From a virus: a stretch of 64,000 nucleotides of DNA. Positions 4,370 through 56,931 of this stretch are shown here, one piece after another. A program made the position numbers and the translations under genes. The stretch is taken from IMG/VR virus record IMGVR_UViG_3300045988_165521, one strand, 5' to 3'. The notes under the pieces were generated by a model. It was not told the DNA's origin. It saw only the letters and a program-made list of their open reading frames with translations, and made no database searches. Numbering within the stretch: the stretch's first letter is position 1; every line of letters starts with the position of its first letter.

Positions 4370-4613
4370 CAGAAGAAAGAAAACTTTGGTTATCAATATG
4401 TAATAATGATTTAAAGAAATTAGAAGCTTGTGCTGAATCTATTCAAACTGAAATTCAAAGAAATGTGTTTTGAATTGGAGCGAAAAGGTAAAGTGGAATA
4501 TTATCTTTAAATTAGATAAAGCTACTCGTTGGGGGCATAGTCCTCATAGAAGAGAAATTTCTTATATTATTTCTGTATATCAACAAAGAGTTAGAGAAAT
4601 GATGCTAGAATAA
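4366..4613 (+). pseudogene. Disrupted paralog of ORF 4112 (in-frame TGA 4471 plus a -1 frame change)
   Basis: The N-terminal part (KKLEACAESIQ) and the frame-shifted C-terminal part (NWSEKVKWNIIFKLDKA) both align to ORF 4112 (RKLRKCAESVQ, KAWSKEVMAYLFFKIDRL). The frames join at GTG TTT TGA. Confidence 0.4.
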
Positions 4614-4626
4614 ATATTAATGGTTT

Positions 4627-4698
4627 GCGTCGTTGGTGTTAGTGATAGCATATTAGACTTCCAATCTAAAGGGGAGAGTTTGAATCTCTTACGACGCT
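4627..4698 (+). tRNA. tRNA-Gly (anticodon TCC)
   Basis: Acceptor GCGTCGT/ACGACGC, anticodon arm TTAGA-CTTCCAA-TCTAA, T-arm GAGAG-TTTGAAT-CTCTT. Confidence 0.85.
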
Positions 4699-4720
4699 CT
4701 AAAGTGAATAATGAATATTG

Positions 4721-5449
4721 ATGAAAACTATTAAAGAACTTTCAGATAGACAAATTAAACTTGCGTGAATTAGTAGTAAAAGTTTATATGAAATTTGTAA
4801 AAAATTAGAAATTCACGATAATACTTATAATAGAAAATATTTAAGAGTTTGAGGAGTTAAGGAAGGACTAAAAATTCCTGTTTTTACACGATTTACTAAA
4901 ACAGATTATATAAAAAATCCTAAATTGTGTAAAAAATGTAAAAAACCTATTCCTTGAAATCAAAGAGAAAATAACTTCTGTTCTCACTCTTGTGCAACTA
5001 GTTATACAAATATAAAAAGAGGTGCTATAACTAGTGGTAAATATGTCAAAAATGCAACTAGTAAATGCTTAAATTGTGGAAAGGAAATTTTTGCAAGAAA
5101 TAAATATTGTAGTATTATTTGTCAAGTTGAATTTAAATATAAGGAGTATATTCAAAGGTGGAAAGACGGGAAAGAAACAGGAATGTCTGGTACAGATGGT
5201 CTTTCAAATCATATAAGAAAATATTTATTAGATAAGACTAATTATACTTGTGAAATTCCAGGGTGTGGATGCAATTTTATTAATCCTTATACTGGATTAT
5301 CTATTTTGCAAATTCATCATATAGATGGAGATGCAACTAATAATAAAGAGCAAAATCTTCAGGTTTTATGTCCTAATCATCATGCTATGACAGAACATTT
5401 TGGCTCCAGAAATAAAAATAGTACTAGAAAGTATCGTTATAAAAAGTAA
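4721..5449 (+). CDS. HNH homing endonuclease (free-standing; 3 in-frame TGA)
   Basis: A single frame from ATG 4721 with TGA at 4766, 4850 and 4955. Zn-ribbon CxxC pairs and the C-terminal HHIDGD...N...LCPNHH motif. Confidence 0.75.
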
Positions 5450-5476
5450 TTACCCACTCTAATAAATTTTAAAAAC

Positions 5477-6346
5477 ATGAAATCCTTATCTAAAATTTTT
5501 AATGCAATATATTTGTGTATAAGATTTCCATTCTTATATCCAAGAAATAGATTTTCAGATAAACATACAGTTTATATAAGATGGATGTCTAATTTAGTAT
5601 ACAAATACTATAGTAAGTCTTATTATGATATCAGTTTAGCTTATAAGTTTTATAAAGATCCTCAAGAATGTACTACTATTACAAAGCAAGTAATCTTCAA
5701 GGATAAATACAATTTTAAAGCAAGGCTTATACGTAATAATACTATTTTAAGATTTTATAGTGATATATTGAAAGAACCTTATGATTTTAATATACAAAAG
5801 TATGTGGGTGATAATTTTAAGATTTCAGGAATTACTGTAAGTAAATCAACCTTCAATAATATACCTGTTTTATATTATCATATACATAAAAAGGAAGTTA
5901 CTAATACTAATTATGGATTTAGTTATAAGAAGTTAGAATTTGTAGCTGATACCAAAAGTGTCAAGATCTATACTATTCTAAACTATATTTACGAAAATAT
6001 AATTCCTAAAATTTGTTTTATTCCAACTTATACAGAACTTAATAGTATGCCAATTGGTTGGAGAAAAGCATTTGGCATTCAAATGTGTAAAGAAATAAAA
6101 CAAGCTCTTAAAAAGCATAATTATTTATATAATTATAGAATTATGCAGATTAAAGAGAAGTACGGTTCTCTTCGTTGGTATGATGCAGGAGCTCCAGAAG
6201 AAATACAGACTATAATTAATAAGTATGAAGATATTTCTTATCATACATGTATAAGTTGTGGAAAACCTGCTAAATATTTAAGTACAGGGTGGATATGTCC
6301 TTATTGTGAAAAATGTGCTCCAAGGGGCAGTAAGTTAATGAAATAA
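5477..6346 (+). CDS. hypothetical protein with C-terminal CxxC...CxxC zinc ribbon
   Basis: 289-aa ORF with no TGA. Confidence 0.55.
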   Translation: MKSLSKIFNAIYLCIRFPFLYPRNRFSDKHTVYIRWMSNLVYKYYSKSYYDISLAYKFYKDPQECTTITKQVIFKDKYNFKARLIRNNTILRFYSDILKEPYDFNIQKYVGDNFKISGITVSKSTFNNIPVLYYHIHKKEVTNTNYGFSYKKLEFVADTKSVKIYTILNYIYENIIPKICFIPTYTELNSMPIGWRKAFGIQMCKEIKQALKKHNYLYNYRIMQIKEKYGSLRWYDAGAPEEIQTIINKYEDISYHTCISCGKPAKYLSTGWICPYCEKCAPRGSKLMK

Positions 6347-6678
6347 TGACTTTTAAAGAATTTTGTAAAGAACTATTAGAGGAGTATGGATATATAATAT
6401 TTCAATATGATAGTGTTATTTCTTTTACTCAAACTTTTCCTGATACAACTTGTGGATTAGGTGGAATAGGAGGACAAGCATTTACTGATGCTCAAATATT
6501 TATATTTGTTGATCAAAGTAATAGAAATGCTATTGTAATTGGTCCTGCATGGAGTTATTACATAGAAGGTATTACTGAAAAATTTTCAGTAGATTGTTGT
6601 AACCATCATATGGCTGGAATTAATAATATTGCAAGAATTAAAAAATATGGTGACATTAAAGAAATTAAAAGAGCTTAA
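6346..6678 (+). CDS. hypothetical protein
   Basis: 110-aa ORF. Confidence 0.5.
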   Translation: MTFKEFCKELLEEYGYIIFQYDSVISFTQTFPDTTCGLGGIGGQAFTDAQIFIFVDQSNRNAIVIGPAWSYYIEGITEKFSVDCCNHHMAGINNIARIKKYGDIKEIKRA

Positions 6679-7051
6679 GCAGATTAAGCGAGATAATAAG
6701 GTAATTTATAATTTGTTAAATACTATCATTGGAGAGTGTGAACAGATTAGTAAAGATCCTTCTTGTAGTCAGGTTATGGATGTTATACAGAAAATGTATA
6801 AAGATAATAAACAGACTATTAGTGAATGTTCGGTGGATAGAGTTGATCAACTTAATACCCTAAACGAAGAAAATGCTTTCCTTGAGAGTTATTTACCTCA
6901 ACCTCTTACTAAGGAGGAATTAACTGCACTTATTGGTTCACAATTAACTGCAGGTAACAATATGTCAAAAATTATGAAATATCTTTCAGAAGAATATAAA
7001 GGAAGATATGATGGCAAAGTTGCAGTAGAAATTATTAAATCCTTACAATAA
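6629..7051 (+). CDS. YqeY/GatB C-terminal-domain-like protein (start uncertain; ATG 6650 possible)
   Basis: FLESYLPQPLTKEELTALI......NMSKIMKYL....KGRYDGKVAVEIIKSL fits the YqeY family pattern. Confidence 0.65.
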   Translation: MQELKNMVTLKKLKELKQIKRDNKVIYNLLNTIIGECEQISKDPSCSQVMDVIQKMYKDNKQTISECSVDRVDQLNTLNEENAFLESYLPQPLTKEELTALIGSQLTAGNNMSKIMKYLSEEYKGRYDGKVAVEIIKSLQ

Positions 7052-7413
7052 TGTTAATTGTATTTATTATAATATTCATAGCTTTATATGAACTAATAAC
7101 AGTTATGTATTATGAAAGTCTTAAGATAAGACTTGTCAAAGTAGGCGCTTTTATAGATCATCTTAATACTTTTGGTTCTACAGAAGATAAACAAATTTTC
7201 TATAAGTTTTTAAAAGAAGTTAATACAGAATCTATTAGATGCAATGCTAAACTTGATATAACTATAGAAAATGCAAGTAAACCTGAACTTTGGTACAGAT
7301 ATCCTTCAAATCCTAATACCTTTAAAGAGTGTTTCAAACTTTTTAATTTATGTTTTTATCGAAATGTAGTTAAAGATTCAGTTGATAAAATAATTAACTG
7401 GTTTAAGAAATAA
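7051..7413 (+). CDS. hypothetical protein (N-terminal TM helix)
   Basis: 120-aa ORF. Confidence 0.5.
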   Translation: MLIVFIIIFIALYELITVMYYESLKIRLVKVGAFIDHLNTFGSTEDKQIFYKFLKEVNTESIRCNAKLDITIENASKPELWYRYPSNPNTFKECFKLFNLCFYRNVVKDSVDKIINWFKK

Positions 7414-7417
7414 AAAT

Positions 7418-7636
7418 ATGAAATTTTTACTTTGTCTAATTTGTTTAATTACAGTTAGTTGTAATGCTGTAATTGATCCTAAGTCAGAAACTATAAGATC
7501 TGAAGATGGATACTATATTGGTACTGCACATAAATTTAAGTTTGAAGGACATGATTATATTAGTTTTACTAAAGGTCATGGTGTAGCAGTTGTTCATAAT
7601 CCTAAATGTCATTGTAATCTAAATGAAGACTATTAA
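7418..7636 (+). CDS. putative lipoprotein
   Basis: Signal peptide with lipobox-like LITVSC. Confidence 0.5.
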   Translation: MKFLLCLICLITVSCNAVIDPKSETIRSEDGYYIGTAHKFKFEGHDYISFTKGHGVAVVHNPKCHCNLNEDY

Positions 7637-7811
7637 AACATATTGCCCAGAATGTGACAAAGAAACAGTTCATATAATTTGGACGGAGGATGCATATGGA
7701 GCTTCTGGTGTAGCTAGAATCTTTTCAACTTTACTTTCTGTTGGAATGTCAAACTTAGCTTGTACTACATACAGTAAGTGTATTAGTTGTGGAAATACTA
7801 AAGAATTATAA
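7623..7811 (+). CDS. small zinc-ribbon protein
   Basis: CPEC...CISC pairs. Confidence 0.45.
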   Translation: MKTIKTYCPECDKETVHIIWTEDAYGASGVARIFSTLLSVGMSNLACTTYSKCISCGNTKEL

Positions 7812-7812
7812 A

Positions 7813-8076
7813 ATGATTAATGACCAAATTAAAAAGTTAGCTAATAAAAAGATTCCATTATATAATAACTCTTCTAGTTTATATGATATTTTGGATTGGC
7901 TGCGGGAGAAAAAATTCCTACATGTAGAGATACAATGGTATCCTCATGGTTGGATGTTTGTTATTTATAAAATTGATTCTCAAGAGGATGAACCATATGA
8001 TACTTTCTCTGAAGTATATACTAGTTATCTAAATTGTTTAGAAGCTGGAATTATAAGAGCATTAAATATTATATAA
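7813..8076 (+). CDS. hypothetical protein (tandem paralog of 8079)
   Basis: LYDILDWLREKKFLHVEIQWYPHGW parallels LHDILDELRDKESLHVEIGWHPNGY. ATG 7813 was chosen to avoid overlap. Confidence 0.55.
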   Translation: MINDQIKKLANKKIPLYNNSSSLYDILDWLREKKFLHVEIQWYPHGWMFVIYKIDSQEDEPYDTFSEVYTSYLNCLEAGIIRALNII

Positions 8077-8078
8077 TT

Positions 8079-8294
8079 ATGAAAAATACAGGTTTACATG
8101 ATATTCTGGATGAACTAAGAGATAAAGAGTCTTTACATGTAGAAATCGGATGGCATCCTAATGGATATGCATACTCTATTTATAGAATTAATAGGCGAGA
8201 TACAGAGCCGTGTTATGCTTCTTCTGAAAGATACCATAATTATCGGGAATGCTTAGGAGCGGCAATTGTAAAAGCAATGAACTTGGCGGATTAA
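8079..8294 (+). CDS. hypothetical protein (tandem paralog of 7813)
   Basis: See 7813. Confidence 0.55.
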   Translation: MKNTGLHDILDELRDKESLHVEIGWHPNGYAYSIYRINRRDTEPCYASSERYHNYRECLGAAIVKAMNLAD

Positions 8295-31602: not shown

Positions 31603-33479
31603 ATGGCTATCACATTACCAACAAACAAAATTCCTGCAGAAACTCAGGACCCAAGAAATTTAATTATTTTCTCAAAACCAAAATACGGTGGCTTTCGCCG
31701 TGTATTATAGTAATATAATACTTATGAATGGGCAAAAACGGTGAATTCTAAAAATTTGCCATATATTTACATTCTTAGTTGGAATTTCCAGAATCTTTAT
31801 GTAAATTTGCATTATTAATTTTTAAACTAAAATAATTATTATGCAAATTAAAAGACAAAAATATTCGTATGAATTATTACAAGAGTGTTCAAATTATTTA
31901 AATACACACTCTCTTAAGGAAACAGCTATACACTATAACCTTAGTTATAAAACAATGATAAATGGGTTAATTAGGTTTGGATTTTATACTCCAACTAGAA
32001 AACACAAAATAACTAAGAACAACTGCTATAATCAAAATTTCTTTAGTAAAATTGATTCTCATGATAAAGCATACTTTTTAGGATTTTTAATGGCAGATGG
32101 GTATATTTGTACAACTCCTTACAATAAACAAATAGGAATTGGGATTCAGACAAAAGATAAATATATATTAGAATACTATAAAAATTTAATAGGTAAAAAA
32201 TTAAATATAAAACAATATAAAAATTCTAGTAAACTAACTATTACTAGTACTATAATGTATAGTGATCTAACTAAATTAGGATTTATAGAAAATAAATCTC
32301 ATAATGACTATCATTTTCCAGATATTCCTGATGAATTTAAATCATCTTTCATTTGTGGATATTTTGATGGAGATGGGTGTATAACTATAAAATCTACAGG
32401 ATTTAGTGTATGTTCAATATGTTGTAATTCTAAAATATTCTTAGAAGATTTAAAATCTATATTGGCAAAATATAACATACTATGTAGACCTATCTGTAAA
32501 GAAATAAAAAATAGAAAAAATTCAATATATGTTTTATATTTATCAGGAAGATCCAACCAATTAAAATTTAAGGATTTTATATATAAGAGCGTTAATGTTT
32601 ATCTTGTACGTAAATATGATAAATTTATGAAAATACCGTGCTAACTGTTGTAATAATATATAATGGTAGTGTAACGCGTAGGAAGTGAACCTGTTATACA
32701 GAATATAATCTTCCCAAGAGTGTCCATTATCCTTATGGGATAAAAATGTACGCTGAACTATAAGGAAACTTATAGAAGTAGAGATAAAAAGCTCTACGAT
32801 AACAAAATTGAAAAGCACAGCTTGTGCTAATCTTCCTGGAGCATTATGTATCGACCTTGAAGGGGGTGGATATGATTATATTGATGCTGTAAAGGTAAAA
32901 GCATCTTCTGTTAAAGATTTAAAAGAAATTTGTGCTGCAATTAAGGAAGCTAAATATCCTTATAAGTTTATTGTATTGGATACAATTACTAGACTTGAAG
33001 AAATGGTTAAACCATTAGCTTTAAAGTTATATTTAAATAGTCCTGCAGGACAAAAGTTTACAGGAGATGACGTACTTGATGCACCAATGGGAGCAGGATA
33101 TAGCGCTCTTCGTAAGGCATTAGAGATGGTTATTGATATGGTATCTAAATGTGCACCTAATATTATTCTTATTTGTCATACAAAGGATTCAGCAATCGGT
33201 AATACTGATATGACTGCAAAGACTATTGACTTATTTGGAAAAGCAGGTAGAATTCTTGCTTCAAAGTCAGATGCTATTGGTTATTTAGATAGAGATGAAG
33301 ATTCAAATACTATTCTAAGTTTTAATACAAATGATAAATTTGTAGAATGTGGTGCTAGACCAGAACATTTACGAAATGCAGATGTAGTATTAGGAGAAAT
33401 GAAGGAAGATGGAAATATTGAATTTCATTGGGAAAGAATTTATCCTTCACTTTTAAATCCTGTAGAAGTTAATATATAA
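31603..33479 (+). CDS. Sak4-like/RecA-fold ATPase, split by a group I intron: join(31603..31689,32811..33479)
   Basis: Exon 1 ends ...IIFSKPKYG and exon 2 starts KSTACANL, so the join restores Walker A G-KS/T. Confidence 0.65.
31802..31809 (+). promoter_or_regulatory. TAnnTTTG box (TAAATTTG) upstream of the LAGLIDADG ORF
   Basis: 32 nt upstream of ATG 31841. The -33 element is imperfect. Confidence 0.35.
31841..32644 (+). CDS. LAGLIDADG homing endonuclease (double-motif)
   Basis: YFLGFLMADGYI and FICGYFDGDGCI. Confidence 0.85.
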   Translation: MQIKRQKYSYELLQECSNYLNTHSLKETAIHYNLSYKTMINGLIRFGFYTPTRKHKITKNNCYNQNFFSKIDSHDKAYFLGFLMADGYICTTPYNKQIGIGIQTKDKYILEYYKNLIGKKLNIKQYKNSSKLTITSTIMYSDLTKLGFIENKSHNDYHFPDIPDEFKSSFICGYFDGDGCITIKSTGFSVCSICCNSKIFLEDLKSILAKYNILCRPICKEIKNRKNSIYVLYLSGRSNQLKFKDFIYKSVNVYLVRKYDKFMKIPC

Positions 33480-34645: not shown

Positions 34646-35674
34646 ATGGTCTTTACATTAGAACCGATAAATATCACTAAAGAACTTATTTTAAGTAAAG
34701 TTAGTGAAGAAACTTTAATGGAGCATTACTTGGGCATTCCTGTAAAAAAAGGATTGTTCAAGTCTCCATTAAGGCAAGATAGTAAACCTACCTGCGCATT
34801 TTATAGGAATAGGAAAGGAGATTTAATATTTAAAGATTTTCGTGGAGACTTTTATGGAAATTTTATTTCGGTTGTAATGTATAAATTCGATTGTCCTTAT
34901 GGCAAGGCTTTACAAATAATTGCTAATGACTTTGGAATAGTTTCCCGCAAAAATTTAACTATAAATAAACCTCTTATTAAATATACAAATCAAAAGTTTA
35001 ATGATACTACTCAAGCTGTTATTCAAATTGAAGATAAGTCTTGAGAAGATTATGAACTTGAATGGTGATCTAAATATGGTATAGATAAAACTATACTAAA
35101 AAAGTTTCATGTATTTTCATGTAAAAATGTATTTTTAAATGGAAGTATATTTAGTTTACATAAAGATCGGCAATTAGTATTTGGATATTATGGAGGTATT
35201 CGAGAAGATATAGAACGTTGACGTATATATTTTCCTGGAAATATAAAGTATAAGTTTATTTCAAATTGAAAGTCATTTAGATTACAAGGTGCTCATGCAC
35301 TTCCAAAAAATGGAGGAGAATATTTAGTTGTAACGAAATCTTTAAAGGATGTTATGACTCTTTATTCATGTGATAAAATTCCTGCAATAGCTCCAATTTC
35401 TGAAAATTGTTTTTTAACTGAAGCTCAATATACAAAGTTAAAGTCTAAATTCAACAAGATAATTTTATTCTATGATAATGACCTTGCTGGAATTGAAAAC
35501 ATGAATAAAATTCGTAAGAAATTTCCTGACGTACATGTATTATTTATACCTAGACATTATAAAGCTAAGGATATATCAGATTTTTATAAAATGTATGGAA
35601 GGACTAAAACTTTAGAATTAATTGAAAAAGCAAAAAACTACATCTCAGAAAAAGAAAACAGGAGCATACTGTAG
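34646..35674 (+). CDS. DNA primase (Toprim; 4 in-frame TGA)
   Basis: Toprim-like VVTKSLKD...YDNDLAG. Track ORFs 34646 and 35354 lie in the same frame. Confidence 0.6.
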
Positions 35675-36017
35675 AAATAAAGGACATAGATATGAGACAA
35701 AAATTGCTCAGGAACTTAGAAATCTTGGATTTACAGATGTAGTTACATCAAGATCTGAGTCTAAGAGTATGGATGACAAAAAAGTGGATTTAGTTGATCG
35801 CAGTGGTAAGTTACCATGTTATATACAATTGAAAAATACTGTTAATACACCTCAATATCATGCTATTAAAAAAGAATGTCCTTTAAAAGATAAACCTTTT
35901 ATTGTAATTTGAAATAAACAAGTTAAGAAAGAAAAAGTATTTGGTTCTGCAGGAGAAGTAGTAATCATGGATAAAGACTTTTTCTATGAACTCTTATCAA
36001 AATTAATTAATGGATAG
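35622..36017 (+). CDS. PD-(D/E)XK / resolvase-like nuclease (1 in-frame TGA)
   Basis: GHRYE...VDLVD...IQLK pattern. Confidence 0.4.
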
Positions 36018-36216
36018 TTGTAGAGTAGTGTTCACCTCTGCTTCTGGACAAAAAATCATTATTGTATTTACATATGATGAAGAGAAGGATGAATTAAATT
36101 ACGTCCCTCGATTTGAACCTCAAGTTGATGCAAAAACTCAATTAGGTTTGTCTGGAAAGTTATGTGAAATATTTTTAGAAGCATTATCTAGCAAAGATGG
36201 AACAACAAAAGATTAG
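36010..36216 (+). CDS. hypothetical protein
   Basis: 68-aa ORF. Confidence 0.4.
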   Translation: MDSCRVVFTSASGQKIIIVFTYDEEKDELNYVPRFEPQVDAKTQLGLSGKLCEIFLEALSSKDGTTKD

Positions 36217-37769
36217 ATACGATTTGACTCCACAATATGGAATTGAGGAGGTCAACAAAATTCTTACAAGTAAATTAAGTAAGTACCAAGAAAACGAATG
36301 GAAAAGAGGTATGAAGTGGACGGATGTTCTCTCATCTCTTAAAAAACACTTGAATCAGTTCGAACGAGGTATTGATTATACAAACGAGGGACTTTTAGAA
36401 ATGGCTGAAGTAGCTACTAATGCATTGATATTATGTGAATTTTATCATATATATCCTCAAGGAGATGATAGAGTTATGGCCCCTATCGATAAGCCTATTG
36501 TTGGATTAGATCTCGATAATGTAGTATTTGATTTCAATAAAGCTTATGAAGACAAGTTTGGTGTTGCTATGAATCCTTACTGGAATGCAAACTATCAGAT
36601 GTCTGAACATCTACATGAATTAGAATCAGATAAAGAGTTTTGGATTAATATTCCTGTATTACATAGACCCTCTTTTGAAGTAGACTATTATGTAACTGCA
36701 AGAAATATTCCAACTGAATGGATTCAGGAAAGTTTACAGAAGAATGGTTTACCATGTGCTCCTGTAATTACAGTACCTTGGAATGCTAGTAAAGTTGAGG
36801 CAATTAAAAGTAGGGGAATTACGATTATGATTGACGATTAAAAATATTACTTCAACTAATCCAGTCGTCATTAAATCGCATGAATTGCTGGAAACTCCAG
36901 AGATGGACAATCAGCAGCCAAGCACACCTTTAACAAAGTGTGAAGGTTCAACGACTAACTAATGAAACTATGTTAACATTAATTTTAATAATACTATTTA
37001 GTTGTAGAATATATTATAATCCTAGTCCATTGTTTGAAGAGTATAAAAATTATAGAAATCAAAAACATGAATTAGAATTAGTACAATGTGCTAATACAGA
37101 TAAGAAAATTAAGCAGCTATTATCTATATACTTAGATAAGTACCAGGGAAATCGAATATGGATAATACAGTATCATAGAGGGATCAATGACTACATGTGT
37201 GGTTCTATGAGATTTGAACTTTATGATAAACAAACTAAACCTATTAAATATCAGTATACTGATTTTAACCTAAGTTGGTATACTCTACCCGATTATTTAA
37301 GAATCCATGATAGTTTTATAGGAAAACTTGAAGAGGTTGATCCTGTTTTATCTATAAGTAATAGTGCAAAATATATTATTTGTAAATTAATAAGAGATTA
37401 CAATAATGTTTCTATTGGTATATTTGGTATATCTTATTTAGATAAGCTTCCTAACAAATTGTTAGAAACAGATCTGCAACAAGATTATATTGAATTACAA
37501 AAATTAATGTTAGAATAGAATATAATTTAGACACGAGCGTGCGACATCTAGAAATAGATGATGATATAGTCTGAACTACAGATATAATCTAAAAATGAAA
37601 CTGTAGAATTAACAGATAAAGAACTGTTAAGTTAACATAATTGAAATATGATAATTATAAAGAAATTACTAATGCGGGAATATTCTGTTATTTAATGGAT
37701 GCTCCTCATAATCAGTATTATCAAGTAGGACATCGTAGAATTTATGATCTTAAAATACCTATTAAGTAA
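36197..37769 (+). CDS. 5'(3')-deoxyribonucleotidase (HAD/NT5C-like) with an N-terminal extra domain, split by a group I intron: join(36197..36838,37644..37769)
   Basis: DLDNVVFDF HAD motif. Exon 1 ends ...ITIMIDD and exon 2 reads KYDNYKEITNAGIFCYLMDAPHNQ... to TAA 37767. Confidence 0.6.
36839..37643 (+). mobile_element. Group I intron (phage IA2-like core) with an unrecognised ORF
   Basis: P1: exon TGACGAT (36832-36838) pairs with GTCGTCA (36864-36870), with a U-G wobble. It shares TGAATTGCTGGAA, AATCAGCAGCCAAGC, GGTTCAACGACT, ACACGAG and GATATAGTCTGAAC with the introns at 51581 and 55102. It ends ...ATAATTG. Confidence 0.75.
36970..37518 (+). CDS. intron-encoded protein of unknown function (N-terminal hydrophobic helix; no endonuclease motif seen)
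   Basis: ATG 36970; 182 aa: MLTLILIILFSCRIYYNPSPLFEEYKNY... Confidence 0.5.
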   Translation: MLTLILIILFSCRIYYNPSPLFEEYKNYRNQKHELELVQCANTDKKIKQLLSIYLDKYQGNRIWIIQYHRGINDYMCGSMRFELYDKQTKPIKYQYTDFNLSWYTLPDYLRIHDSFIGKLEEVDPVLSISNSAKYIICKLIRDYNNVSIGIFGISYLDKLPNKLLETDLQQDYIELQKLMLE

Positions 37770-54606: not shown

Positions 54607-56931
54607 ATGAAGAAAAATATAAATACAATTAATATTGAAGAATTAAAAACATTAGCTAGTTATATTATTGATAATAATAAACGATTATATAATGAGCATA
54701 AAAAGACTACTGCAATTGAAGTAGTAGGTGAATCTGGTTTAGGTAAAACTTCTGCTATCATTCAGTTAGCTCAAGAAAGAGGAATGGACTGTATTAAACT
54801 TAATCTTTCTCAGTTAGAGGAATTAGGTGATCTTATTGGTTTTCCAATTAAAGAGTATTATGTTTGTACAGAGCGTCCTAGACTTGATGATGATGGAATG
54901 CCTGTTGTAGAAAATGAAATAGTAATTAAGGATGAGGAATGTCTTTGGGTATCTGCAGATGTACTAGATTCTTATATTGCAGAGGGTTATAGAATTAAAG
55001 ATAATATATCTCGAATGGGATACGCTCTTCCTGCATGGGTTCCTACTTCTCGAAATGAAAATGGCACAATTTTAATTCTTGATGACTTTAATCGTGCGGA
55101 TTAAAAAATATATTGTAAAGTTTTGTTTCCCTGAATAAATTTAGTATCTTTGATATAAATTTAAAAATATGGAAAAACTAACATTACAAAAGATTAAAGT
55201 TTATAAAAAAGTTTGTGGAATTTATAAAATAAAGATCCACGATAAAGAATATATAGGAAGTTCAAAAAATATTCAGCATAGATTAAGACAACATCTAATT
55301 ACTTTAAAACAAAATAAACATCACAATCATACTATGCAAAATTTGTATAACAAGTATGGCATTGATAATATTTATTTTGAAGTTATAGAAACTTGTCTTG
55401 AGGAAAATAGAATTAGTAGAGAAAAATACTATATAAATAGTATTAAACCTTATATAAATCATATTTTAGACCCTGAGAATATCATTAGAGATAAAGAATA
55501 TAAACATAGAATAAGTATCTCTAAAAAGAAATATTATGAGACACATTCTCCAGTTAATATAAAAATGGTATATCAGTATAGTTTAGAAGGAAAATATCTT
55601 CAAAGTTATAAATCGATAACAGATGCAGCTATATCTACTAACCAAGATACTACTGCAATATGTAGTGTATGTAATAATCGTAGTTATACTGCTGGTGGAT
55701 ATAGATGATCATTTGAATTAAAAGAAAATCTTTCTAAACTAAAAAAGAAATATAAGAAAATACCTGTTATTCAATATTCACTTGATAATGTTTTTATTAA
55801 AGAGTGAGATTCTAAAACAGATGCTGAAAAAGAACTAAAAATTTGTAATATATCTCGCGCTATAAGAAAAAATCTTACTGCAGGAGGATATAAATGAAAG
55901 TATAAAATCTAGAGGTCCGCATAAAATAGCGTGAATTGCTGGAAAAGCCTGAGGAGGTCAATCAGCAGCTAAGCTAATTAGTAATAATTAGAAAGTTCAA
56001 CGACTAGTACATGGAGTCCAGGAATGGATGGTAAAGTACCACGAGTGCGCTACACTATTTATATAGTGAAGATATAGTCTGAACTACGTTATAACCTAAG
56101 AAAAGACGTAGAAGTATAGGATAAAGAGCCTATACGATAACAATAATGCCTAGATTTATACAAGCTACCATGGAGCTTATTGACCGAGGAGAATATATTT
56201 CATGGAGTCTTCCTCCTAATTGTACAATTATATTAACATCAAATCCTGATAATGGTGATTATAATGTTAATTCTATGGATAATGCCCAAAAGACTCGATA
56301 TATTAGTTTCGAATTAGGTTTTGATAAAGATGTATGGGCTCGTTGGGCTGAGAAAGAGGGTATTGATGGTCGTTTTATCAATTTCGTATTATCTTATCCT
56401 GAGATTATGAACAAGGAGGGAGGAGTACAAAAAGTTAATCCTCGAAGTTTAGTAACCTTTGCAAATACTATTTCAGGTTTTAAAGATTGGTCAGATACTA
56501 ATACTTTAGGTTTAATTCTTAATATTGCTCAAGGTTGTTTTACTTCTGAAGAAAACGTTATTGGAAACTTATTTACTACATTTATTGCTAATAAGTTAGA
56601 TAAATTAATGGACCCAGATACAATGTTAAATAAAGATTGGGATTATGTTAAAGGAGAATTAGCAAAACAAGTATATGATGGTACTAACTATCGTGCAGAT
56701 ATTGCTGCAGTTTTAACAACTCGATTCTGTAATTTTGTAAATCTATATTTTGATACAAAAGGTAGTAAAACAGAAGTAGCTGTTGATAGAATTCTTAAAA
56801 TTATTGAGCATGATAAGATGTTATTTTCTGAGGATTTGATTTTCAGTTTAATTAAAACTCTCCAAAAAAATCATCCTACAAGATGTAATAAATTATTATT
56901 GAATCCTAAAGTAGCTAGAAAGTTAATATAA
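54607..56931 (+). CDS. AAA+ ATPase (MoxR-like), split by a group I intron: join(54607..55101,56149..56931)
   Basis: Walker A GESGLGKTS. Exon 1 ends ...ILILDDFNRAD and exon 2 starts PRFIQATMELIDRGEY, a continuous Walker B / sensor region. Confidence 0.7.
55122..55152 (+). promoter_or_regulatory. Bacteroidota-type promoter (TTTG-N19-TATCTTTG) inside the intron, for the GIY-YIG ORF
   Basis: TTTG 55122-55125 and TATCTTTG 55145-55152, 17 nt upstream of ATG 55169. Confidence 0.55.
55169..55912 (+). CDS. GIY-YIG homing endonuclease (intron-encoded; 3 in-frame TGA)
   Basis: GIYKIKIHDKEYIGSSKNIQHRLRQH...N...YG motif. The frame continues through TGA to TAG 55910. Confidence 0.75.

Follow-up and report, generated by a model that had tools for sequence, protein, structure and literature searches.

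The ORFs of phage group I introns are generally assumed to encode homing endonucleases. This holds for the introns of T4 td/nrdB/nrdD, SPO1, Twort and the Zeta-group crAss-like phages, which resemble the locus described here in that their host genes belong to the same nucleotide-metabolism and replication setting and in that the ORF is looped out of a peripheral element. Whereas those ORFs encode homing endonucleases, the intron described here carries a membrane protein, usually with no endonuclease at all. A cargo of another kind is rps3, found in a group I intron of the fungal mitochondrial rnl gene. Both rps3 and the present ORF are conserved genes that appear to serve the host rather than intron mobility; however, rps3 stays at one organellar location and its product is an essential ribosomal protein, while the present cargo is a duplicated membrane protein that occurs in three host genes.

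The phage lysis systems closest to the function proposed below also differ from it in how the inhibitor arises. The holin-antiholin pair S107/S105 of phage lambda is produced from one gene through dual starts, and, as we propose here, two products have membrane and interaction parts in common while the N-terminus decides between hole-former and inhibitor; in our case, though, the short form comes from a diverged gene copy of its own, which sits in an intron. The T4 antiholins RI and RIII are unrelated small proteins, in contrast to the putative modulator at this locus, which is a truncated paralog of a holin-like protein. The full-length relatives of our ORF share, in structural models, the four-part layout of the class III holin T of T4 (PF11031; PMC12162936), and the globular domain of the ORF product superposes on the T periplasmic domain (6psk_T, E 2e-5). 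Nevertheless, T has no significant sequence similarity to the ORF family, and the intronic protein lacks the amphipathic helix as well as some of the TM helix. The N-terminal cytoplasmic helix of T is needed for hole formation and not for self-association, such that T minus its 22 N-terminal residues retains assembly but does not permeabilise the membrane (PMC12162936). Up to 14 introns have been reported in Zeta-group crAss-like genomes, in a survey of crAss-like phages that located introns by their endonuclease domains (Yutin 2021, PMC7886860); an intron with a membrane-protein cargo would therefore escape that survey.

The interrupted nucleotidase gene and its intron RNA

The window (the whole 64,000-nucleotide stretch of virus record IMGVR_UViG_3300045988_165521 that was analysed) contains a split dNTP-diphosphohydrolase/nucleotidase gene interrupted by an 805-nt intron at 36839–37643; this and all features below lie on the + strand. 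Exon 1 (36197–36838) belongs to a dATP/dGTP-diphosphohydrolase and 5'-nucleotidase-like gene (Pfam PF18909, E 1e-16) and ends in IMIDD, and exon 2 (37644–37769) encodes KYDNYKEITNAG through to a terminal PIK and the stop codon. The PHROG 37590 profile continues from exon 1 (profile positions 51–296) into exon 2 (positions 297–332), and the reading frame is open across 36838/37644 once the intron is removed. Comparison genomes were the virus records nearest to the window. In the nearest of these, G002, the junction is uninterrupted, with ATGATTGACGAT followed directly by AAATATGATAA, and the exons flanking this empty site are both colinear with those of the window and 96–99% identical to them. 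The 5' splice site follows U36838 and the final intron base is G37643.

An E-value scan of the region with Rfam gave a partial match to RF00028 at 36882–36968 (model positions 56–151; 40.9 bits, relative to a gathering score of 50; E 1.1e-8), while a scan at gathering thresholds returned tRNAs only. Coverage was partial; the model is unable to bridge the 575-nt insertion of the ORF. Three group I hallmarks were present: P1 places a U.G pair at the 5' splice site, the last base is G, and the element is precisely absent from an otherwise colinear allele. We conclude that 36839–37643 is a real group I intron, for which self-splicing is predicted.

The internal guide sequence GTCGTCA (36864–36870), read from the sequence, forms P1 with the exon end TGACGAT (36832–36838), and in the polA copy the intron's own guide, GTGGC, fits its own exon end, GCCAT. 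The P3 5' strand TCGCATG (36876–36882) pairs with CGTGCGA (37538–37544) downstream of the ORF, and the thyX copies have the compensatory pair CTCCGTG/TGCGGAG. The RF00028 match corresponds to the conserved P3-P4-P5-P6-P7 (5' strand) core, which is near-invariant in all copies and includes the P7 5' strand GACTA (36953–36957); its complement TAGTC (37567–37571) lies in a conserved GATATAGTC element that is invariant in all copies. A P8-type hairpin, CATCTA-GAAA-TAGATG (37545–37560), is compensated in thyX as CATCCA-GAAA-TGGATG. At 37576–37630 there are two further hairpins, P9 (CTACAG...CTGTAG, 37576–37606; changed in polA to CTATGG...CCATAG) and P9.1 (TTAACAG...CTGTTAA, 37609–37630), both of which were in the MFE fold of the ORF-deleted intron. 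Overall, compensatory changes between intron copies occurred in P1, P3, P8 and P9.

The ORF is located in the loop between P7 and the P3 3' strand, which is the site of P7.1/P7.2 in subgroup IA introns. It is looped out of the intron by a 13-bp RNA helix, the 5' strand of which, TAACATTAATTTT (36974–36986), encodes L-T-L-I-L and is a perfect complement of the 3' strand, AAAATTAATGTTA (37500–37512), within the last codons of the ORF. This helix imposes part of the conservation at the N-terminus of the ORF.

An intronic gene with full-length relatives

The ORF spans 36970–37518 (ATG 36970; TAG 37516–37518) and encodes 182 aa beginning MLTLILIILFSCRIYYNPSPLF; we annotate its product as a truncated TM + GAF-like (T-holin-like) protein. 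Judged on sequence, 182 open codons in DNA so AT-rich are not a product of chance. Some gene callers place the start at GTG 36940, which was dropped, being TGG in most thyX copies and situated inside the P6 stem; the start conserved among copies is ATG 36970. The GTG start would yield a textbook lipoprotein signal peptide. Homologs of the ORF (n = 12) were 63–99% identical to it. Pfam and PHROG scans of the ORF gave no significant family, nuclease or other, at E up to 1, and the positive control for the nuclease scan, a LAGLIDADG_2 ORF from the same intron in L001, was recovered at a Pfam E of 2e-34. Megablast and tblastn searches of the phage collection gave no match, and a profile search of PDB sequences returned noise only.

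Relatives of greater length were found by phmmer, which gave 47 matches; the distant full-length relatives among them are 215–257 aa long, with ~35 extra N-terminal residues and a full TM helix. Elsewhere in the genome, the related phages encode a full-length protein of 227–238 aa in which an amphipathic helix at the N-terminus is followed by a single TM helix, a long bridge helix and, lastly, the GAF-like globular domain. Of the five related virus records searched, four had one close full-length copy of this size and one intronic copy; in the fifth (G004, 83% complete) the intronic copy was accompanied only by a distant family member of 247 aa. G002 had the full-length copy only, the intronic copy being apparently absent. 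In the tree, the intronic copies formed a single clade (support 100/99) on a long stem branch, and this clade fell within the full-length proteins of the same phage group (96/94). The start of the intronic copy falls within the TM helix, so that the amphipathic helix and roughly one third of the TM segment, at its N-terminal end, are missing. What remains comprises the bridge helix and the globular domain, together with all near-invariant residues of the family; across the family, a His, an Arg, a second His, a Glu and an Asp are conserved. The wider TM + GAF-like phage family gave weak matches to PHROG 38864 and 30125.

Codon use at five conserved Trp positions was also recorded. The full-length copies have TGA at 3–5 of the five; the intronic copies have none, with TGG at two, Tyr at two and one deleted. 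The absence of TGA was weighed as a timing signal; however, the host nucleotidase gene likewise has no TGA codons and regional TGA use varies from gene to gene, so that the pattern stands as a bare observation.

Across the ORF copies dN/dS was 0.24–0.48, and in the central 155 codons, which lie outside the RNA helix, it was 0.24–0.45; these ratios indicate that the ORF is under purifying selection. Such selection bears on whether the ORF might be a non-functional relic left by the capture of a gene fragment and kept open by chance or by RNA-structure constraint. A relic would be consistent with the shortening of the ORF relative to the family, with the overlap of its ends with the 13-bp helix and with the missing intronic copy in G002. 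However, the low dN/dS was obtained outside the helix, all distinct copies examined were intact with indels in frame only, every near-invariant family residue was kept and the ORF model has a confident fold, which together make decay very improbable.

The first-pass annotation had described a 182-aa ORF starting at ATG 36970 inside a nucleotidase intron, with a hydrophobic N-terminus and no endonuclease signature. The coordinates and the empty site in G002 agree with this placement, the hydrophobic N-terminus corresponds to a predicted helix (residues 2–16) that is a remnant of the family's TM helix, and there was no nuclease among the Pfam, PHROG or Foldseek matches. It had left three readings side by side: a novel endonuclease, a degenerate one, or a hitch-hiking accessory or membrane gene. 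The first two can be treated together as a novel or degenerate homing endonuclease or RNA maturase that mobilises the intron or aids its splicing. The ORF does lie in the intron loop where homing endonuclease genes usually reside, most intron copies (the window's included) have no second ORF and no endonuclease, and the conserved His, Arg, His, Glu and Asp of the family could be cited in favour of catalysis. Against this, no nuclease family or fold was matched, the closest relatives are free-standing membrane proteins, the product has a hydrophobic membrane helix, and in some copies the same intron holds a true LAGLIDADG ORF (Pfam E 2e-34) or an HNH/EndoVII-like ORF in another loop. Sequence, fold and context thus lend nothing to the two endonuclease readings, the least credible of all those we weighed; the accessory gene is supported by its membership of a TM-anchored GAF-like phage family, by purifying selection and by the real LAGLIDADG/HNH-type ORFs alongside it in some introns. 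It is very likely that the ORF is a real cargo gene in a group I intron loop, not a homing endonuclease, and a truncated paralog of the 227–238-aa membrane protein.

Predicted fold and resemblance to holin T

The AlphaFold (AF2) model of the ORF product (pLDDT 94) has a T-like arrangement: a short hydrophobic N-terminal helix (codons 2–16, LTLILIILFSCRIYY, 36973–37017), a long bridge helix (codons 19–57, 37024–37140) and a GAF-like alpha/beta globular domain (codons 58–182, 37141–37515). The model of a full-length relative, P0013 (pLDDT 90.8), has helices at 8–25, 27–48 and 51–90 followed by the alpha/beta domain; the first of these is the amphipathic helix that is missing from the intronic ORF, and the third is equivalent to the bridge helix. 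In alignment with the full-length relatives, codons 2–16 of the ORF cover the C-terminal two thirds of their TM helix. The topology of the ORF product is uncertain because its hydrophobic segment is ~15 residues long and is not preceded by N-terminal positive charge.

The top Foldseek matches in the PDB were GAF domains (7lsd, 7lsc and 6mgh; E 3e-6, TM 0.63/0.75), with NreA also among the matches, and T4 holin T was matched by 6psk_T (TM 0.57/0.69) and the further entries 6pxe and 6px4 (E 2e-5 to 7e-4 for the three). In BFVD, the ORF model matched phage 'GAF domain' proteins of ~205–245 aa (E 2e-11) and proteins of Proteus and Serratia phages annotated as 'Holin', 'Class III holin' or 'T holin' (E 2e-7 to 7e-5), and matches of the full-length model to annotated T-type/class III holins covered ~220 columns. 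All significant matches of the ORF model were to GAF-like or holin T domains and none was to a nuclease, so that a structural search for a remote endonuclease fold, as had been suggested, came back empty. The Pfam GAF profile was absent among the matches of the ORF and of every sequence in alignment A3.

Profile comparisons with holin T were weaker. The PF11031 (Phage_holin_T) profile did not match the ORF, and among the 38 sequences of alignment A3 it matched a single one, at E 0.057. Aligned by hhalign with 24 T holins, the family was colinear over the N-terminal 85 columns at 23% probability, and comparison with T4 T alone gave no significant homology. Since hhalign gave no significant homology to T4 T or to the T-holin alignment, we left the ORF outside PF11031.

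Weak support for a holin-like role comes from the position of the full-length gene, which is ~1.9 kb from an M15-like peptidase (a putative endolysin) and a 131-aa membrane protein. Another holin candidate adjoins the M15-like peptidase of this phage. Around three distant family members the neighbouring genes showed no connection to lysis; the sole annotation there was a weak DUF6808 in the downstream neighbour of two of the three. The protein might be a membrane-anchored GAF-like accessory protein unrelated to holin control, such as a sensor, a superinfection exclusion factor or a host-envelope modifier, in which case the full-length family and the intronic copy would share only fold and topology with T4 T. 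GAF domains are the best structural matches and fit the ORF at least as well as holin T does, which is in keeping with such a role, as are the failed PF11031 membership, the separate holin candidate and the absence of lysis genes near distant family members. On the other hand, the entire four-part architecture, beyond the globular fold, is common to T-type holins (PMC12162936), annotated class III holins were matched across their full length and the putative endolysin lies close to the full-length gene. We consider a role unrelated to holins unlikely on balance, yet serious enough to be kept in view.

The N-terminus could also be read as the signal peptide of a cleaved periplasmic or lipid-anchored form, with a lipobox-like L-F/L-S-C at residues 9–12 and a mature start at Cys12. 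Such a form would mimic the holin-like globular domain as a decoy in the periplasm, at a location comparable to that of T4 RI. With the start at ATG 36970 there are no positive charges ahead of the hydrophobic run, the GTG 36940 start, which would provide such charges, is not conserved, lipobox position -2 is F or L, which is atypical, and the Cys is missing from the wider family. Cys12 is nonetheless present in 12 of 13 intronic copies behind a short hydrophobic run, and the signal peptide of T4 RI is now regarded as cleavable (PMC8385771). We judge this form improbable.

Our preferred explanation, for identity and mechanism together, is that the ORF is a hitch-hiking holin-like membrane cargo that modulates the full-length protein, to which we assign a probability of roughly 45%. 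By analogy with N-terminally shortened T4 T, the intronic protein would make no hole; at the membrane, it would bind the full-length protein or its partners, and the outcome would be a dominant-negative, antiholin-like modulation of lysis timing. Either the excised intron or the transcript prior to splicing could serve as its mRNA, in each case from the nucleotide-metabolism and replication genes. The functional part on its own, that the intronic protein is an antiholin-like modulator of the full-length protein and not pore-forming, is proposed tentatively. The antiholin idea is directly testable, as the truncation mirrors the engineered T4 mutant that assembles without hole formation. It is more doubtful still that an intron family of abundant gut crAss-like phages captured and shortened the phage's own holin-like gene, which would now be an antiholin-type decoy.

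Spread among host genes and biological meaning

The first-pass annotation had also proposed looking for homologs in introns elsewhere, and the intron core with its ORF was found in three host genes: nucleotidase, polA and thyX. Between one polA and one nucleotidase intron, the P3-to-P7' module is identical at 722 of 727 positions, with unrelated flanks. Comparison of the copies indicates that the ORF is a mobile gene, travelling with the intron core among these three replication/nucleotide-metabolism genes. The module may have spread by recombination between related introns, with core and ORF moving together and independently of any nuclease activity of the ORF product, and the cargo may supply a selective reason to keep the intron.

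A holin-like membrane protein is an unusual cargo for a group I intron. Here, the place of the expected endonuclease is taken by a conserved membrane protein that is under purifying selection. Its gene duplicates, in shortened form, a full-length phage gene whose product has the T4 holin T layout. The locus therefore offers a tangible example of a selfish RNA element that may earn its keep through host-beneficial or competitive cargo. In addition, the large TM + GAF-like phage family provides candidate class III holins in Bacteroidota phages, for which lysis systems are poorly known. If the intronic protein is an antiholin-type decoy, the presence of the intron would alter the time of lysis or how co-infections end, and this would be the first self-splicing intron with a lysis regulator, not a nuclease, as its cargo, and one that spreads by swapping a core-plus-cargo module between the introns of different genes.

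The interrupted nucleotidase gene and its intron

The nucleotidase gene of the window is split on the plus strand into exon 1 (36197-36838; positions 51-296 of phrog_37590, and Pfam dGTP_diPhyd_N) and exon 2 (37644-37769; positions 297-332), which together match this single PHROG family end to end. In G002, the nearest virus record (86% of the window's sampled words in common), the gene is 96-99% identical to that of the window and the insert is absent. The G002 junction, between ATGATTGACGAT and AAATATGATAA, joins window position 36838 exactly to 37644; thus, the intron is 36839-37643 (plus strand, 805 nt), with an empty site in G002, and the reading frame is open across the spliced exons. 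These data bear out the first-pass annotation, which had placed a 182-aa ORF inside a nucleotidase intron. This ORF runs on the plus strand from ATG 36970 to TAG 37516-37518 and starts MLTLILIILFSCRIYYNPSPLF.

At the gathering threshold, Rfam returned tRNAs alone across the whole window, and a local E-value scan located an RF00028 group I core at 36882-36968 (model positions 56-151; 40.9 bits, E = 1.1e-8). P1 pairs the exon end TGACGAT (36832-36838) with GTCGTCA (36864-36870) and places a U.G pair at the splice site; the intron ends with G37643. Since P3 pairs TCGCATG (36876-36882) with CGTGCGA (37538-37544), its 3′ strand is positioned downstream of the ORF, which occupies the gap between P7 (GACTA 36953-36957 with TAGTC 37567-37571) and that strand. 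Subgroup IA introns carry P7.1/P7.2 at this place. The ORF loop is shut by 13 perfect base pairs (36974-36986 with 37500-37512), a helix that starts 2 bases past the ATG and ends 3 bases ahead of the stop; because it overlaps the ORF ends, RNA structure places an extra constraint on codons 2-6 (L-T-L-I-L) and on the closing codons (K-L-M-L). Intron copies from other genes have compensatory substitutions in P3 (CTCCGTG/TGCGGAG), the P8 hairpin (CATCCA-GAAA-TGGATG vs CATCTA-GAAA-TAGATG) and P9 (CTATGG...CCATAG vs CTACAG...CTGTAG), and the polA copy has the guide sequence GTGGC, which pairs with the polA exon end GCCAT. An ORF-less relative of the intron, with a core ~75% identical, was found at ~55910-56125 of the window and at 31880-32330 of G002. 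There, the gap from P7 to the P3 3′ strand holds only small hairpins (~38 nt), which gives a picture of the cargo-free site.

Movement and conservation of the intronic ORF

Homologs were sought inside introns elsewhere, and the intron core was found together with the ORF in genes for nucleotidase (the window, L001 and L011), DNA polymerase A (L002) and thyX (L004-L010 and L012, with Thy1 matches in both exons). Subclades of the ORF tree did not track the host gene, with the window copy joining thyX copies and the polA copy joining nucleotidase copies. Over the stretch from P3 to the P7 3′ strand, with the ORF counted in, the polA intron of L002 and the nucleotidase intron of L011 were identical at 722 of 727 positions, whereas their P1-P2 regions, with 33/110 identities, were unrelated and the 3′ ends showed only partial likeness (51/80). 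This near-identity between unrelated flanks argues that a core-plus-cargo module was swapped between introns, most simply through recombination between their conserved cores.

The majority of intron copies, including that of the window, contained no ORF besides the cargo. In L001 (3061-3993) and L011, the P1 loop housed a LAGLIDADG_2 ORF (E = 2e-34), the motif of which (A-I-W-F-M-D-D-G) requires TGA to encode Trp; therefore, intron endonuclease genes use the recoded codon, whereas the TM and GAF cargo does not. L004 had a 259-aa HNH/EndoVII-like ORF in the P5 loop (PHROG 1035, 3322 and 374). At this locus (4591-8251, record G003) two related group I introns interrupt thyX in tandem, each with such an ORF in P5; the TM and GAF ORF is in the first only, and its position in the second is taken by an unrelated frame of 67 codons.

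Among eight distinct intronic copies, pairwise Nei-Gojobori dN/dS was 0.24-0.48; the range was 0.24-0.45 once the 22 initial and 14 final codons had been excluded because of their overlap with RNA structure. Indel lengths were multiples of three and none of the copies was broken; that the ORF is a decaying relic is thus very improbable. Together with the full-length phage paralogs described below, these intact copies favour the earlier suggestion of a hitch-hiking accessory gene. With a confidence of about 0.9, we identify the ORF as membrane-type cargo, conserved and not a nuclease gene, that a mobile group I intron carries and that stems from a gene of the phage's own lineage.

Family and fold of the encoded protein

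Pfam and PHROG searches matched the ORF to no family, in keeping with the first-pass view that it has no recognisable endonuclease motif. Metagenomes yielded 12 homologs (63-99% identity), and phmmer, run exhaustively against 1.8 billion cluster representatives, returned 47 matches. Distant full-length matches (215-257 aa) could be aligned to the entire ORF and have ~35 additional N-terminal residues and a complete transmembrane helix, within which the ORF start falls. As no nuclease family matched and the relatives are full-length transmembrane proteins, the proposal of a novel or degenerate endonuclease was not upheld, and a novel nuclease or maturase is hardly credible. The hydrophobic N-terminus was borne out: it aligns inside the family's transmembrane helix and is modelled as a helix (residues 2-16), but the hydrophobic run is only ~15 residues (Kyte-Doolittle mean ~2.0 over residues 2-16), with no N-terminal positive charge, and membrane topology is uncertain. 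A cleaved, lipoprotein-type periplasmic form would be another reading of this segment, and is improbable.

An AlphaFold2 model built on the phmmer-family alignment (pLDDT 94) comprised helices 2-16 and 19-57 and an alpha/beta domain; that of P0013, a full-length relative (44% identical; pLDDT 90.8), had helices 8-25, 27-48 and 51-90 ahead of the same domain. Foldseek, one of the checks proposed at first pass, matched PDB GAF domains (7lsd, 7lsc and 6mgh at E = 3e-6; also NreA) and the periplasmic domain of T4 holin T (6psk_T, E = 2e-5, TM 0.57/0.69; also 6pxe and 6px4). Among predicted viral structures, the matches were phage 'GAF domain-containing' proteins (~205-245 aa, E = 2e-11), proteins of crAss-like, Tenacibaculum and Polaribacter phages, and, from Proteus and Serratia phages, proteins that bear the annotation 'Holin', 'Class III holin' or 'T holin lysis mediator' (E = 2e-7 to 7e-5); the full-length model aligned with annotated holins over ~220 columns. 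At the sequence level, homology to T was not supported: the Pfam profile of T (PF11031) did not match the ORF, a sequence search of the PDB was negative, and hhalign against 24 T holins gave a probability of only 23%, although with an alignment colinear through the amphipathic helix, TM helix and domain start. A membrane GAF-like protein with a role unconnected with lysis would fit the GAF matches, and is only slightly less likely than the role proposed below.

According to a 2025 study (PMC12162936), T4 T begins with a short amphipathic helix and continues into a single TM helix, a bridge helix and a globular domain with a regulatory role; without 22 N-terminal residues it loses permeabilisation and keeps self-association. 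The same order of amphipathic, TM and bridge helices ahead of a GAF-like domain is seen in full-length family members, which are possible class III holins of phages that infect Bacteroidota. The intronic copies retain every near-invariant residue of the family (H33, R62, H69, E83, G118 and D124). The full-length members (215-257 aa) are widespread, unannotated phage proteins, several of which weakly match PHROG 38864 and 30125.

Full-length paralogs and a possible role

G002 encodes a single full-length family member, of 233 aa, in which TGA occurs in frame five times. Of the five related records searched, four (G003, G005, G006 and G007) each had one close full-length copy (227-238 aa, 3-5 TGA codons within the gene) and one truncated intronic copy with 0 TGA; in G004 (83% complete) an intronic copy and a distant family member were found, and a close full-length copy was not. 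The distant member (L028, G004 133790-134473) is very divergent, full-length (247 aa) and free of TGA codons. From these close relatives we infer a full-length paralog in the window's own genome. Code 4 (TGA = Trp) is supported in this phage group because the LAGLIDADG motif requires it and because the full-length gene stays open under that code alone. At 35622-36014 of the window, the table 11 frame ends at TGA 35910-35912 and would gain ~33 codons if TGA were Trp; TGA and TGG usage differs gene by gene across 20-64 kb. Related genomes are 140-174 kb, and their sizes, intron density and recoding fit published Zeta group crAss-like phages (PMC7886860).

In a maximum-likelihood tree, intronic copies grouped in a single clade (100/99) with a long stem (0.96), and this clade fell within the full-length proteins of the group's phages (96/94, 95/92); we read this pattern as a single capture and later divergence. 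The full-length gene of G002 is ~1.9 kb from, and on the opposite strand to, an M15-like peptidase, whose Pfam match (E = 7e-4) falls short of the curated cut-off, and a membrane protein of 131 aa, a candidate second holin; this proximity faintly hints at a link to lysis. The latter two genes are consecutive (L032 4212-5081, G002, outside the window), and the membrane protein contains KDHEWGHTRQS. Directly 3′ of the full-length gene (L014 2186-3667/L032 7638-9566, G002) is a gene that weakly resembles PD-(D/E)XK nucleases (E = 0.005, again short of curated significance) and is split by a LAGLIDADG-type intein (LGCWLGDGS ... GLMDTDGY).

By analogy with T4 T, the truncation would take away precisely the part needed for hole formation and the shortened protein would retain the parts for association and regulation; on these grounds we favour an antiholin-like role. 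We tentatively propose that the ORF product may work against the full-length protein as its dominant-negative, antiholin-like partner, and that it would come from transcripts of replication-phase genes.
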